NCBI GenBank assembly: GCA_000002435.2
Contig: CM018793.1
DNA from: Giardia intestinalis
Taxonomy: Eukaryota
Direction: 5' to 3' (one strand)
Length of the DNA stretch: 64,000 bases
Shown piece by piece: positions 9,001 to 15,000 of the stretch (the stretch's first letter is position 1; every line of letters begins with the position of its first letter). The position numbers were made by a program.

Positions 9001-12000
9001 TGGCATGCTGCGCAACATTCTCATCGTCGCCTTCTATCAGATCGCTGTTATCCTTCTAATGATCTTTGGTGTGGTAGGAGACACCCTGCTCATGGTTCCA
9101 GATTCTGTTAAGTGTATACCCATGGCTGACGGCTCGTGCGCCTACAACGAGCACGGAGCAAAGGCCTACAGGTATACGTGCATATACAATTTCTTTATAT
9201 TCGCCCAGCTTTTCAATGAAATCAGTTCGAGGCGTATAAACAATGAGCTCAACGTCTTCTCTGGCCTCCACAAATCACCCATGTTCATCTTAATCTTCCT
9301 CGGTACGGTCGGTATGCAACTCATTATTATGCTTGCTCCTGGTGTCCGTTATATCTTCCATATCTTCGACTGTAGTGAGAACCACCAGAGCTACTGTGGG
9401 AATAGCCATGATCACGGTATCCTCTGGCAGTCGTGGGCCATCACCTTGGCCTTTGCACTCTTCACTGTATTTGTCCACCTCTTTGGAAGGCTGAAGAAAC
9501 TGAAGCCTGAGTTCAAGGTTAGTGAGAAGGCAGCCAAGAGGGCCATGGAGAAGAAGAACGCTCGCGCGGCTAAGAGAGAAAAGAAGGCCGACAAGGAGAA
9601 AAGGGCTGGTAAGGCGGAGGCGAAGAAACTTCTCGAGCCATCTGGTAGCGACTGATTCCTTGTCCCATCCTAGTAGGTCTGATAACCTAAGCATTTAGAG
9701 TAAAGGACTTTCTTTTATATTATATTGTTAGTGAGAGTTGACAAAGAAGGGGGTTATGTAAAAAAATGTCTGCTCCAACAACCGCAGACCTGCTCGCACT
9801 GTTTACTTCTCGAGACCTCGGGGCACTTAGAGACAAGTATGGCAGTATAGAAGGTCTAGCAAAAGAATTGGGGTCTGACCCTGCCACAGGCCTTTTGAAA
9901 CCTACCGTTTTGCTCCATCGAAAAACCTATGGTAGCAATACAATGCCTCTTCGGCGGCCGAGAGGATATGGTTGGGCATTTCTCAGAGGTCTGAAAGACC
10001 CCGTGGTGATTGTACTAACTGTCATCTCCATTTTGTTGATTACCTTCGGATTGCTTCCGGATTATACCTATGATGTTTATGCATGGATTGACGGGGTGAT
10101 TACCCTAGTGATGCTTTTGCTACTCTTGTCTATTAATGCGGCTATTGTTTACCATAAGGACAAAGTGCTGTGGCAGGCTAACGTAAACGCCAATAAGCAT
10201 ACTGTCACTGTGGTCAGAGATGGCAGACCCCAAGATGAATCGTCTGACAGCCTTGTAGTAGGTGATGTGGTATGTCTTACTGCTGGTTCGTTTGTCCCCG
10301 CTGATGGCGTCTTGCTGATTAATACTGACGTGAAAGTGATCACTGATCTGTCTACGGTTCTAAATGGCTCATTAACGAGCACGTCCGTAACCCAAACAAC
10401 TGATCCATTCCTGAGTGCAGGAACATACATTAGCGACGCCACCGAAGAGGTGCGAATGCTCGTGCTAGTTGTTGGAGAGGCCACTATTTTAGGGAAGACT
10501 CGCTTGAGCAAGGGCTATCAGAACTTTGCAACAGACCTCCAGAAGCGTTTAGAAAAGCTTTATCGGTGGACAACAATCGGATCGCTAATAGGCTCACTGA
10601 TTATATTCCTTGTCATGGCTGTTCGATTCTTCTTGGCAGGGACGGCCAATGATAATCGACAGGTCACTACTGTAGTGCGGCAGATCTCCATTGCGCTCAT
10701 CGTCTTTATTGTTACGGCACCAGAGGCTCTTCAGATGGCACTAAGCCTTTCGTTGAGTTACAGTATGAAGACCATGTGTAAGGATGGCATCCATATAAAG
10801 AACTACGATTCCATTGAAAACCTTGCGTGCTGTACTCATCTTGTTCTTTCCACAAACACGCTTCCATCAACTCAGGACGAACTCCTTCAAGCATCTAGCG
10901 CAGGGATCAAGCTATGCTACGCCTCTTCTGACCCCCATGACATAGCTGTTAATAAGGCAAAGGTCGCTGGATTGCTGGATCAGGACTCTTCCTGTGTAGC
11001 TTCTGTGCGCGCGTCTGAGCTATTCTCTTATCCTCAGGAAACCATTAATATGAGGCTGAAGGAGACGCACGTTATCTCGGAGATAACGGCGCAAGATCTG
11101 CACCGTCTCGTATGCTTCCTTAGAAGCCCAGAGGACGTGGTTGCGTATATTGGAACAGATAACCTGCATGCTGCTGCATTGCGTACTGCCGATGTGGGAC
11201 TATCTACCAGGCTCAATGGGACGGATCTCTGCAAAGACAGTTCAGATATTGTGCTTGAGCAGGGTAGCTTTTCTGATCTTATTGAGGCTATCCGCTGGGG
11301 CAGCAACATTGTGCACAATGTAAGGAAGTTTATCCAGTTTCAATATACTGCGGGCGTACTGGTCATCCTCCTCACGCTCCTGTCCTCTGCAATCTTCAAC
11401 ATAATACTTTTCTCTGCTGCTCAGCTGCTCTACATCAACCTTGTCATAGATGCTCTGGCTGCGTTCGCTTTTGGAGGTGAGCCTCCGCACCGCACGGGTA
11501 GTGTTCCTCCACTATTGAGGAGGACCTATAAAATTTTCAATCCGTCCATGACGAGAAATATATACATCTCGGCTCTCTTTACCCTAGTGTCATGCATCCT
11601 AGCACTTATTCCCGATGTTGCAGATAAGCTTTTTGGAATCCCTAGTCGACTGGGCGGTCCCTCTGCCACAGAGGACGAGTTTGCACTGGCGCTGGCTAAT
11701 AGCTTCAAGCAGACGTGTGCATACAACATCCTCGTTATCTCGCTTATTTTTAATATGTTTTGGGCAAGAACTACGTATAGGGAGATGAATGTGTTTGTTT
11801 ACATTAAAAAGTCCATCAATATGTGGATTGTTATTGCAGTGATTGCATGTACCCATGTCGTAGTCATGATGGTTCCTGGGGTGACTTTTGTTTTCAAGAC
11901 ATTTAACTGTCTAGGCGACTCGTGTCTTTTAGGCGGAGCCAATGGGGTCGTTCCGCACCCCCTGAAGTTTTTTAGTATAGGATGGCAAGGGTGGATTGTG

Positions 12001-15000
12001 ACTCTTGTATTAGGTGCTCTCGTTTTGCCTTGCAACCTGCTTTTTAGATTGCTTCCAATGGCACGGGAGTACGGGTATAGAGGAGCAGGGGGCGTTTCTG
12101 CCTCCAAGCTGTAGTCTACTGTAAACGCCAGTTGATATTTAAAACTATGGGTAAGCACCAGCGGTTGGTTCCCATCCTTGCATCAATAGGCTTGGTGTCT
12201 TCGACCACCATTATCTGTCTCCTTGCTTTCCGACACGATATGGTTCTAGAGTTTCTCGGGCTTACATACTTCGTCAACATGATTGGTCTTTTGCCTATAT
12301 TATCCATTCTCTACTTTATCGGCATGTTCTGTTATGGAGCATCGAACTCCATACACAGGAATTTCACAAGTACAGCTGCATGCACAATCTTTCTAATTTC
12401 AATTGTCATGCAGATCATTGAGCTGTCTTTGTTACAGTCCTCAGCATCCAGCATGCTGTATCTCCTAACAGCCACTCTCGGTATTGCGGCGTCCCTGGTG
12501 TCTGCACTGCATCAATCGCCGTCAATATTATTTACCTTTATTGTAAAAGCGGTTCCGTTAACAAACGCAGCTTACTCTGTACTACAGTTCTCGTTGTTGA
12601 AGAAAAACGATGTGGTACTCCTGATCGCTAATGCATGCCTGGCATCGGTCGCATTTTTTGTAGTATCAGTTCTTCCATTGGCAGCACTTGCAGTGGGGAA
12701 CGTTTTAATATATGTCGACTACTCTGGTCAGGCCCTAGGCTCAACGGCGATGTCTGCAGCTACGATTGAGGCATCTCTGACAGCCATTCTAGCAGCCATG
12801 GAGGTCATCAAGTACACAAACATTCGGAAGGAAATATTGATGGATATCAAGCAGAAGCAGCAGCGCGGCGTGCCTAACTCGTACGCAACAATGGATTAGA
12901 TGCACAGAAGGCAGCAGCTGCACCAAGAGTAAATAGCTAGAGTGAGGTTAGAGACCAGAAGCATAAGTATACTGTCCGATAGTCTCGAGTGCTCGATGCA
13001 TCGATGACCCGCTGAAGATAGTCTTGTATATTCCTCGCTTCAGCGAGGACAGCTCTAGCACCTTGCGAAGGATCGGAACAAGCCGAAGAAGCTCTAGATC
13101 ATCTTCTTCGCCGCTGAAGGGGGGTATAGGATAGGCTAGTTCCACATTCAGAGCATAGGAAACCGGATTGTCATCTACAATGATCATATCTGACAGGGGG
13201 CGCCCCAGCTTAGCCAGGTTCTTTACCAGGGAGCCATCTATCATGTCGCATGCACCTCTGTACAGGACAACATCTGCGTAACGATCTATCTCAGTAGCTC
13301 TGATTCTCGGCTCTGCGTATGATTCCATTGCTGCGGTCCAAATGATAACCTCAAAGACAGTCGAGGCCCACCCAAGGAAGTCCAACGCATATGGTCGCAG
13401 ATAGAGATAACGGTATGTGGACTCTTCTCCCATGTCGAAGTAGTCCAAGGGCGTATTCAGAAGCTCCGCAGACGTATAGAATAAGGTCGCATCGAGATCA
13501 AGAACTAGCGTTGGCCTGCCCTTCTTACGAACATTGGGAGGAAGCAGCGCCAAATGATCAGATTGGTCCACGTGTCCGCCATTCGCAGAAGAGTTCGCCA
13601 TCCTCTGCAGCGCTACAAACGCATTAGCCCATGTTTCCACTGCGTCGGAGGTCCGGATGCTTTGCAGAAAGAAATCGTGCCTATTAAGAAGATTGCTAGG
13701 GATGGGTACGAATCGTTGGGTACGCGGGCTGTACAAAGGGGCCGAATCCAGCTTATCGATGTTAATCAAGAAGCGAGTTATAGGGATGACTCCCTCGACC
13801 TCGCGCTTCCGACCTTTCATGGCCTTCCGGGATTTGGCGGGCTTTCGGAGAGACATTTTAATGAAAATTTTTTAATTGACTATGGCACAGTACACACCCG
13901 GGGTCCAGGTAGAGACCGTACCCATGGGTAAGATTCATACAGCAGCAGCGGGAGCTGTACTAGACATATGCACAGACCCGTATAGCCAGATGGTTGCGAC
14001 AGCTAGTTCTGACGGAACTATTCGCATCTATTCAGCAAACACAGGAGATTCGGGGGTAGCAACAGATGCTGTCTTTTGCCTCACACATCACAGGGCTTCG
14101 GTTTGTCGCGTAGTTTGGGTTCCTCCGGCTTATGGGAACTTTATCATCAGTGCAGGGCATGACGGCCTCCTCCTTGTTTGGCAGAAGCTAGACGGGGGCT
14201 GGCGTATCGGTGCAGAGCACAAGTTCCAGCAACCGATAGCTGACATTTCTGTTCTGAATGATAACGTGTTTGTAGCATCTCTTGATGGTAGTCTGCACTA
14301 CTGCAAAGCGTACTTTCAACAAAACCCAGCCATTGATTGCATCGGATCCACAACCTGTAAGTTCGTACCCTTGGCAATAGATGCCCGTCCTGTTGGTGAT
14401 CAATTTCAGGTCGCATGCGGGCTCTTGTCGGGGTTTCTAACCATTTTTCTCGTTGCAGGATCGGGGGAGTTCATAGAGCAGGAGTACTGCCAGTTGATCC
14501 AGACTCCTTCACCAATTCGATCCGTTGCCTGGGGGAGTGCGCTACTTAATCCATACGGCTCGCTGGCTGTCGGCTACGAGACGGGAGAACTGCTCATATA
14601 CAAGGCTATTACAGGAGAGAAGGTCGAACTAAGCACAGCTGTGTACACCAAAACCGTTGAAAGGCCCTTGTGTCGGGTCAGATACGGTCCCACAGGTGCA
14701 GTTCTTGCAATTGCGTATGGAGATGGAAAATCAGAGCTGATCAATCCCTTTATAAACTCCAAGTAAACCAATCTTACCTCAAAACCAAGGCAGAGAGTGC
14801 CAGTGATTACCCCAGTGGGTGACGCACAAGGTCTTTTAGGGCGCAGCTTACAGGCCATACCGCTACAGTGGTATACGCAAACAGCACGCGTGAAAATTAA
14901 TGGAAATTGAGTAACTCTCTTAAAAATTACTTTCCATTATGAGTAATACCCAATCGACGTTTAACGCGCTGCCCTCTGGGAATGATAGTCATGAGGTCAG

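Follow-up and report, generated by a model that had tools for sequence, protein, structure and literature searches.

A Selection-Maintained, Probably Catalytically Dead Paralogue of the PMCA-Type Ca2+-ATPase in Giardia intestinalis

Organization of the Locus

The window analyzed here is a 64,000-nt stretch of Giardia intestinalis DNA (assembly GCA_000002435.2, contig CM018793.1), and all coordinates are window positions unless another locus is named. It contains an intact PMCA-type (P2B) Ca2+-ATPase gene, GL50803_32658 (6368..9655, +, 1095 aa), followed on the same strand by GL50803_102438 (9766..12114, +), which very probably encodes a selection-maintained, catalytically dead paralogue of that Ca2+-ATPase, referred to here as the pseudo-pump. 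A preliminary description made from the DNA had placed a stop-free 782-aa open reading frame (ORF) just downstream of an intact PMCA-type ATPase. Rereading the sequence agrees with this: the ORF begins with ATG, encodes 782 aa, contains no internal stops, and starts after a gap of 110 bp from the end of the pump gene. The predicted protein matches G. intestinalis WB XP_001708561.1 (UniProt A8B9T9) at 100% identity, and the locus tag GL50803_102438 was assigned by position in a genome-ordered supplementary table. Databases call this protein an active pump, a name that is misleading for the reasons given below.

The upstream pump carries TGES, DKTGT (at residue 361), KGASE, TGD, DPLRPG (at residue 643), and GDGSNDAP in our alignment, and it scores all five P-type Pfam families. 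The mechanical ORF for the pump begins at a TTG at 6347, and the ATG at 6368 (MSSGGF...) agrees with the 1095-aa database protein. We note that bacterial-style gene calls on two of the loci compared, L002 and L004, over- or under-extend the starts of pump and pseudo-pump alike.

The 110-bp intergenic region (9656..9765, +) contains an AGTAAA at 9699-9704, an A/T-rich stretch, and an A-run at 9760-9765 that abuts the pseudo-pump ATG. The AGTAAA resembles the Giardia poly(A) signal, which we take to serve the pump, and the A-run is presumably an initiator; on this understanding of Giardia gene structure, the pair of elements fits two separately transcribed genes. In an alignment of five lineages, AAAAAAATG, the A-run together with the ATG, is invariant, and an AGTRAA-like element is recognizable. 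A multi-transmembrane (TM) ORF of 250 aa, GL50803_32657 (12147..12899, +), follows the pseudo-pump and is the conserved neighbor that marks the putative insertion point discussed below.

Four further pseudo-pump orthologues (90, 78, 74, and 70% identity) were found in G. lamblia P15, in an ENA metagenome scaffold, and in the Logan assemblies of runs ERR3333383 and ERR3333382. All five orthologues of the G. duodenalis complex are full length, lack the same Pfam families, and share the same deletion junction. The gene order at each locus is helicase, Nudix, pump, pseudo-pump, 250-aa ORF, NIF, and WD40/Sec13, read as far as each contig extends (L004 ends inside the 250-aa ORF).

Loss of the Catalytic Machinery

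Three Pfam families are matched in the pseudo-pump: Cation_ATPase_N (aa 25-90, 9838..10035, +, E = 1.2e-13), E1-E2_ATPase (aa 143-339), and Cation_ATPase_C (aa 548-762, E = 5.1e-26), the last lying within the TM5-TM10 region (aa 502-762, 11269..12051, +). The Hydrolase family (PF00702) and the Cation_ATPase family of the nucleotide-binding domain, or N-domain (PF13246), are absent both from our Pfam scan and from the precomputed Pfam assignments. The profile comparison that the preliminary description had proposed therefore corroborates its account on both sides, with Hydrolase and the N-domain family unmatched and E1-E2_ATPase and Cation_ATPase_C matched. The recognizable PMCA N-terminus and TM helices that it had reported are likewise seen, in the Cation_ATPase_N and Cation_ATPase_C matches and in ten predicted TM helices.

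BLASTP aligns the pseudo-pump with the upstream pump in two collinear blocks, aa 8-359 with pump residues 19-365 (28% identity) and aa 367-769 with pump residues 655-1056 (27% identity), so that pump residues ∼366-654 are skipped. The skipped stretch of ∼280-290 residues runs from DKTGT across the N-domain as far as DPLRP, and one in-frame deletion of about 280 aa took out DKTGT together with the whole N-domain. BLASTP and the multiple alignment place in its stead the junction HLVLSTNTLPS (aa 358-368, 10837..10869, +), and the deletion junction is identical in position in the five lineages, with the pattern VLS(TN/VD/DS)(T/A)LPS. The earlier claim that most of the N-domain had been deleted is thus borne out, and the whole domain is gone.

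An alignment of 10 sequences, five pumps and five pseudo-pumps, confirms each of the motif replacements first described, TGES by NGSL, DKTGT by LSTNTLP, and GDGSNDAP by IGTDNLHA. In the window protein, MTGES is replaced by LNGSL (NGSL at aa 200-203, 10363..10374, +); the orthologues have NGSL or NGTL, and the Glu is gone in all five. ITSDKTGTLT gives way to the VLSTNTLPS junction, MVTGD to YASSD (YAS(S/P)(D/N) across the orthologues), and PKDK to AQDL, which puts Leu445 (11098..11100, +) at the conserved Lys of the phosphorylation domain (P-domain), a position that is Lys in 53/53 active pumps and Leu in 5/5 orthologues. The hinge TGDGSNDAP reads IGTDNLHAA, TGTDSLHAA, IGNSCLHAA, VGVDSFHAA, or IGDDCIHAS across the five; in the window the former GDGxNDxP hinge is GTDNLHAA (aa 463-470, 11152..11175, +), and its positions vary among orthologues (T/T/N/V/D at one of them, and others). 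PEGLP in TM4 is replaced by PEAL(Q/K/S).

A conservation audit scored the columns that are ≥90% conserved in 53 active pumps across the five pseudo-pump orthologues. D-K-T-G-T-x-T, present in 53/53 active pumps, falls in a gap or at the junction in 5/5 orthologues. The columns kept in all five orthologues amount to 5/5 at the N-terminus, 5/6 in TM3-4, and 4/4 in TM5-10; to 11/17 in the actuator domain (A-domain), where the lost columns include T, G, E, and the next residue, K, none of which survives in any of the five; to 1/8 in the N-terminal half of the P-domain and 0/4 in the N-domain; and to 11/34 in the C-terminal half of the P-domain, where 8 more positions vary among orthologues. This variation at the hinge and at other catalytic positions indicates that the catalytic positions are unconstrained. 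Judged by its sequence, the pseudo-pump lacks every defining feature of a catalytic P-type ATPase, namely, DKTGT, the N-domain, TGES, and the hinge with its Lys. Because neither an N-domain nor a phospho-acceptor is present, the protein should be unable to hydrolyze ATP or cycle through E1P/E2P and so would not pump, and we infer from the established P-type mechanism that GL50803_102438 is without ATP binding, the E1P/E2P cycle, and active transport. The same conclusion about the cycle had been drawn at the outset, and it holds with the losses now listed as the N-domain, the phospho-acceptor motif, the Glu of the TGES dephosphorylation loop, and the Lys and Asp residues of the P-domain and hinge that coordinate Mg2+ and phosphate.

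Could the protein nevertheless be an ATPase that works through noncanonical residues, such as the Asp of a VLSDST junction, or that binds nucleotide in trans? The residue aligned to the phospho-Asp is T/T/V/D/D across the five orthologues; the two divergent ones, reading VLSDSTLPS and VLSDSALPS, carry an Asp that aligns with the SD position and precedes x-T, and the TGD Asp (Asp389) is retained in 4/5 orthologues. The junction Asp is, however, T/T/V in the other three lineages and stands without K-T-G-T. The N-domain is wholly absent, and the rest of the window codes for none. Also missing are the conserved Lys, the Asn and the two Asp residues of the hinge, and the Glu of TGES, and the catalytic positions vary among orthologues. 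Residual catalysis is therefore highly improbable.

A split gene, whose N-domain exon would be joined by cis- or trans-splicing, would account for the same gap, as would an error of assembly or annotation. Giardia does possess a few cis- and trans-spliced genes, which lends the first of these some plausibility. Against both, no N-domain-like coding sequence occurs elsewhere in the 64-kb window, which tells against a split gene in particular, and AlphaFold2 folds the junction into a continuous P-domain. Five independent assemblies (NCBI, ENA, and Logan) also show one and the same in-frame junction, and the pseudo-pump protein is found on 30 contigs. The probability that we assign to these explanations is close to nil.

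Predicted Fold and Putative Ca2+ Site

The AlphaFold2 model of the pseudo-pump is confident (predicted local distance difference test, pLDDT, 81.7; predicted template modeling score, pTM, 0.81). It contains ten TM helices, a β-rich A-domain (aa 143-250, 10192..10515, +) whose fold is kept in a catalytically dead form, and an alternating β/α P-domain stub (aa 340-510, 10783..11295, +), Rossmann-like and without catalytic residues. The membrane domain had been singled out earlier as the part that was kept; it is kept, though not alone, as the model retains the core folds of the A- and P-domains as well. Foldseek with this model gives PMCA and ACA8 as the best PDB matches (4.6e-35 for PMCA, with E1 states reaching a TMq of 0.80, a preference that is no evidence for a locked conformation because the conformational state is AlphaFold2's choice). 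The best PDB matches by sequence are ACA8 (8qmp, 2.6e-61) and PMCA1 (6a69, 1.1e-50). The closest homologues, the predicted fold, the ten TM helices, and the PEGL-type TM4 together identify a P2B (PMCA/ACA) protein by descent.

The residues of the single PMCA Ca2+ site are Glu320, Asn558, and Asp562 in pseudo-pump numbering; they are invariant in 5/5 orthologues and match pump columns that are ≥90% conserved. Glu320 lies in the TM4 motif PEAL (aa 319-322, 10720..10731, +), the former PEGL, which is invariant in the five orthologues and kept relative to the 53 pumps, and the model unwinds TM4 at PEAL with a helix break at 318-319. Asn558 and Asp562 lie in the TM6 motif YINLVID (aa 556-562, 11431..11451, +), which is also invariant and kept relative to active pumps; TM6 is the helix closest to the pump, at 50% identity. 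From the sequence, the Ca2+ site of the pseudo-pump looks intact. In the alignment, the TM5 Asn and TM8 positions are unlike those of the pump, and the Lys-rich basic C-tail of the pump, which bears on the calmodulin-binding autoinhibitory tail of the P2B subfamily, is missing.

An intact-looking site in a protein that should not pump raises the possibility of a passive Ca2+ or Ca2+/H+ pathway, in which the membrane domain and its site-II residues would let ions through without ATP, by way of a channel, leak, or exchanger, or would signal site occupancy in the manner of a transceptor. Phrased more generally, an engine-less P2B pump would be an ATP-independent Ca2+-binding membrane device, with the inert A- and P-domains as a gate or docking platform. 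The invariance of Glu320, Asn558, and Asp562 and the position of TM4 and TM6 as the most conserved helices fit such a device, as does the replacement of the PEGLP Gly and second Pro (PEALQ/K/S) while the liganding Glu stays; in SERCA, mutagenesis has shown that this Gly and second Pro couple ion binding to the E1P-E2P transition. On the other hand, the inert A- and P-domains are as constrained as the membrane domain (see below), which a pure pore would not need, the TM5 Asn and TM8 positions differ from the pump, and no naturally channel-like P2 ATPase was found in our literature searches. We regard the passive pathway as unlikely, though as the main rival of the role proposed below, and we give the device with a gate or docking platform the same low standing.

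The C-terminal tail of the pseudo-pump (aa 766-782, 12061..12111, +) is predicted to be disordered (pLDDT <50). In assemblage A and the B-like lineage its last residues (aa 779-782, 12100..12111) end in -SKL, which resembles a peroxisomal targeting signal 1 (PTS1). A peroxisomal signal was ruled out, as the other lineages end in -FKL, -SAP, or -STP, the tail is near-neutral, and the protein is a polytopic membrane protein; we judge the resemblance to be due to chance.

Purifying Selection and Expression

We compared the orthologues by pairwise ratios of nonsynonymous to synonymous substitution (dN/dS, ω), treating pairs with dS >1 as saturated and using them as support only. The ratios are 0.08-0.145 for the pseudo-pump, 0.02-0.044 for the intact pump, and 0.03-0.10 for four neighboring genes. 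For the closest pseudo-pump pair, which is unsaturated (dS 0.57), ω is 0.090 with a bootstrap 95% confidence interval of 0.066-0.114 (p = 1e-70). By region, ω is 0.02-0.06 in TM1-4 and 0.07-0.09 in TM5-10, whereas the dead A-domain stands at 0.10 and the P-domain stub at 0.09-0.13; values of ∼0.5-0.9 are confined to the last 15 residues. The whole architecture of the pseudo-pump, inert cytosolic domains included, is clearly under purifying selection. As an enzyme homologue that has lost its catalytic residues and is under such selection, the pseudo-pump is a pseudoenzyme.

The comparison with orthologues had been suggested as the means of distinguishing a functional paralogue from a dead duplicate kept by low mutation pressure, and it tells against the duplicate: ω is far below 1, and neither stops nor frameshifts interrupt the ORF in five lineages, whereas 43-224 nonsense hits would be expected under neutrality over the divergences spanned (probability of no stop, ≤3e-19). 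An ω of 0.090 with zero nonsense hits leads us to reject the dead-duplicate reading.

A decaying or neutral duplicate, that is, a unitary pseudogene still open by chance, would explain why all catalytic motifs are gone and ∼280 aa deleted, why the pseudo-pump evolves ∼2.5-5 times faster than the pump, and why it is rarely seen in proteomes. It would not explain the constraint on every domain, the conserved start-codon context, or the apparent expression of the gene, and it is scarcely tenable. The expression data come from Supplementary Table 11 of PMC8866875, in which GL50803_102438 has nonzero RNA log fold-changes in two drug-resistant lines; its protein value is 0 in 2/9 proteomic comparisons and NA in 7/9, and the pump is quantified in nearly all. 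The legend to Fig. 7 of the same paper states that a bar denotes unchanged and an empty field not detected. Reading the table coding accordingly (0 as quantified, NA as not detected), we infer that the pseudo-pump is transcribed and occasionally quantified as protein.

The encystation RNA-seq tables list the downstream gene alone and no GL50803_102438, and two other supplementary datasets have no entry for it among the text listed. Among the papers covered by our literature searches, none mentions A8B9T9, XP_001708561, GL50803_102438, or GL50803_32658 in its main text, and nothing relevant was found on Giardia P-type ATPases or PMCAs or on P-type ATPases described as inactive or as pseudoenzymes.

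Distribution and Origin

An exhaustive HMMER search with a profile of the five orthologues against 1.84 billion representatives returned a single cluster that matches the profile in one end-to-end stretch, which is the Giardia cluster itself; no other N-domain-less relative was found among these representatives. The next match, at 389 bits, is a Giardia-type intact pump, 67% identical to the pump of the window and 92% identical to that of G. muris, and generic PMCAs score ≤284 bits. The closest active relatives of the pseudo-pump are the Giardia-type pumps. Several short profile matches (P0103 from Hexamita, P0169, P0186, and P0105) were considered as N-domain-less relatives and set aside as fragments of ordinary pumps with DKTGT and GDGxNDAP.

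The pseudo-pump occurs across the whole G. duodenalis complex and is missing from G. muris, where none was found at the pump loci or in either protein search. In the G. muris reference genome and in the related assembly that carries the 389-bit pump, an orthologue of the window's 250-aa ORF lies 34-35 bp beyond the pump; the match is full length at 29% identity in both loci (E = 1e-34 to 1e-36), and this orthology is independently listed in a published table. The upstream flanks of the G. muris-type pump loci are unlike those of G. duodenalis. The simplest reading of these loci is that, in the stem of G. duodenalis, a tandem duplication inserted the pseudo-pump after the pump and before the 250-aa ORF. 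After the duplication, a burst of change in the pseudo-pump would have been followed by renewed constraint; the mean Kimura distance between pseudo-pump and pump is ∼1.6, whereas the pumps of G. duodenalis and G. muris are 0.26 apart. An older duplication, cleanly lost in G. muris, would be the alternative.

In a neighbor-joining tree (200 bootstraps), the pseudo-pump clade sits on a very long branch as sister to diplomonad pumps, with a support of 75/200, and site-pattern tests favor no placement (1 vs 1 vs 7-10 sites, then 8 vs 10). With both tree and site patterns saturated, sequence comparison cannot place the duplication before or after the G. muris split, and synteny alone bears on the question. 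The original designation of a tandem duplicate is thus plausible from the adjacency of the genes and the empty G. muris locus, but the phylogeny gives it no date. We note that a Giardia-like PMCA at L010 8001..11402 (Logan SRR31929897) shares 56-57% identity with the pumps of G. duodenalis and G. muris; it lies on a less compact contig, is followed by a 1602-aa ORF without a Pfam match, has no pseudo-pump neighbor, and could serve as an outgroup for dating the duplication.

Comparison with Known Systems and Possible Function

Like the P2B Ca2+-ATPases (PMCA1/2, ACA8, and GL50803_32658), the pseudo-pump has Cation_ATPase_N, an A-domain, a P-domain core, ten predicted TM helices, and the site-II Glu/Asn/Asp. 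Unlike them, it has no N-domain, DKTGT, TGES Glu, P-domain Lys, GDGxNDxP acidic residues, or basic C-tail, and by this comparison it should be unable to act as an ATP-driven pump.

Dead paralogues that regulate active enzymes are known from the trypanosomatid prozymes of AdoMetDC and deoxyhypusine synthase, which are soluble and for which heterodimerization has been demonstrated. The pseudo-pump resembles them in being the paralogue of an active enzyme that has lost its catalytic residues and that selection conserves among parasites, and they are the model for the partner or regulator role proposed here. In contrast to the soluble prozymes, it is a membrane protein, and its pairing with the active pump is putative. 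The yeast transceptors Snf3/Rgt2 and Ssy1 are transporter homologues that have kept substrate binding and lost transport. They differ from the pseudo-pump in belonging to the MFS/APC superfamily and in signaling by long cytosolic tails, to which the pseudo-pump has no comparable tail. The nearest documented precedent for a degenerate P-type module retained in another role is that of the alveolate and stramenopile guanylate cyclases (P4GC), in which a P4-ATPase-like module is kept for a nontransport or supporting role and in which the DKTGT Asp and LDGET Glu are altered in some lineages (Cryptosporidium, P4GC-β, gregarines, and Tetrahymena; PMC13466520). Unlike the Giardia protein, which is a free-standing P2B protein with the N-domain excised, those modules are of the P4 (flippase) type, are fused to a cyclase, and keep their N-domain.

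By analogy with dead-paralogue regulators such as the prozymes, the pseudo-pump may be a noncatalytic, Ca2+-binding membrane partner, regulator, or sensor, the likeliest of the roles considered and one that we put forward tentatively. Its most plausible mode of action would be in concert with the active pump beside it, in the way that other dead paralogues control active family members, or else in sensing Ca2+. Such a function would call for both the membrane core with its ion site and the cytosolic headpiece, folded yet inert, which would explain the constraint on both. An unspecified structural role takes up the remaining probability.

Several observations weigh against a selection-maintained, Ca2+-binding pseudo-pump of this kind. 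Packing constraints within the TM4/TM6 core, instead of Ca2+ binding, could be what keeps the three ion-site residues in place. Protein detection is sparse, with NA in seven of nine proteomic comparisons (PMC8866875), and an organelle proteome has the pump and not GL50803_102438 among the entries listed. As G. muris manages without a pseudo-pump, the protein is not essential to the genus. Finally, the partner or regulator mechanism draws on analogy.

Neighboring Features of the Window

The 250-aa ORF GL50803_32657, which is directly 3′ of the pseudo-pump in G. duodenalis and directly 3′ of the intact pump in G. muris, is itself under strong purifying selection (ω 0.04-0.08), with orthologues at L009 11293..12036 and L008 11263..12006. 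It appears in the ortholog tables of an encystation expression paper. We considered it as a recognizable pump accessory subunit and rejected this assignment: it has no Pfam match and no PDB sequence match, its homologues are found in Giardia only, and its AlphaFold2 model (pLDDT 39) is unusable.

Farther along the window, a giant ORF of 6320 aa (17312..36274, -) has orthologues without a Pfam match in assemblage E and on the B-like scaffold (6316 and 6325 aa), and it accounts for the long positive GC-skew run at ∼18-36 kb. The G+C content is raised in two blocks, 1..2000 and 54000..62000 (0.53-0.545 vs 0.45-0.50 elsewhere in the window).

Significance

Because databases name the pseudo-pump as an active pump, inventories of Ca2+ transport in Giardia count two PMCAs, of which by the present analysis only one can pump. 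We found no literature description of the Giardia gene as inactive, nor of a free-standing, N-domain-less P2-type pseudo-pump, a search whose coverage is incomplete and whose result is absence of evidence; within it, a free-standing P-type paralogue kept by selection without its N-domain and all phosphoryl-transfer residues has no earlier description. Neofunctionalization classically leaves the pattern seen here, a very long stem branch and then renewed constraint. The G. duodenalis complex infects humans and livestock, and the specificity of the pseudo-pump to that complex gives it possible relevance to Ca2+ signaling in encystation and excystation.

For the P-type family, the protein offers a natural experiment in which a membrane domain with an intact-looking ion site is kept without the engine, and although it is confined to one species complex, it bears on how the membrane domains of pumps can be reused. 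If it should prove to be an engine-less Ca2+-binding device, it would stand among the P-type ATPases as CFTR or SUR does within the ABC superfamily.

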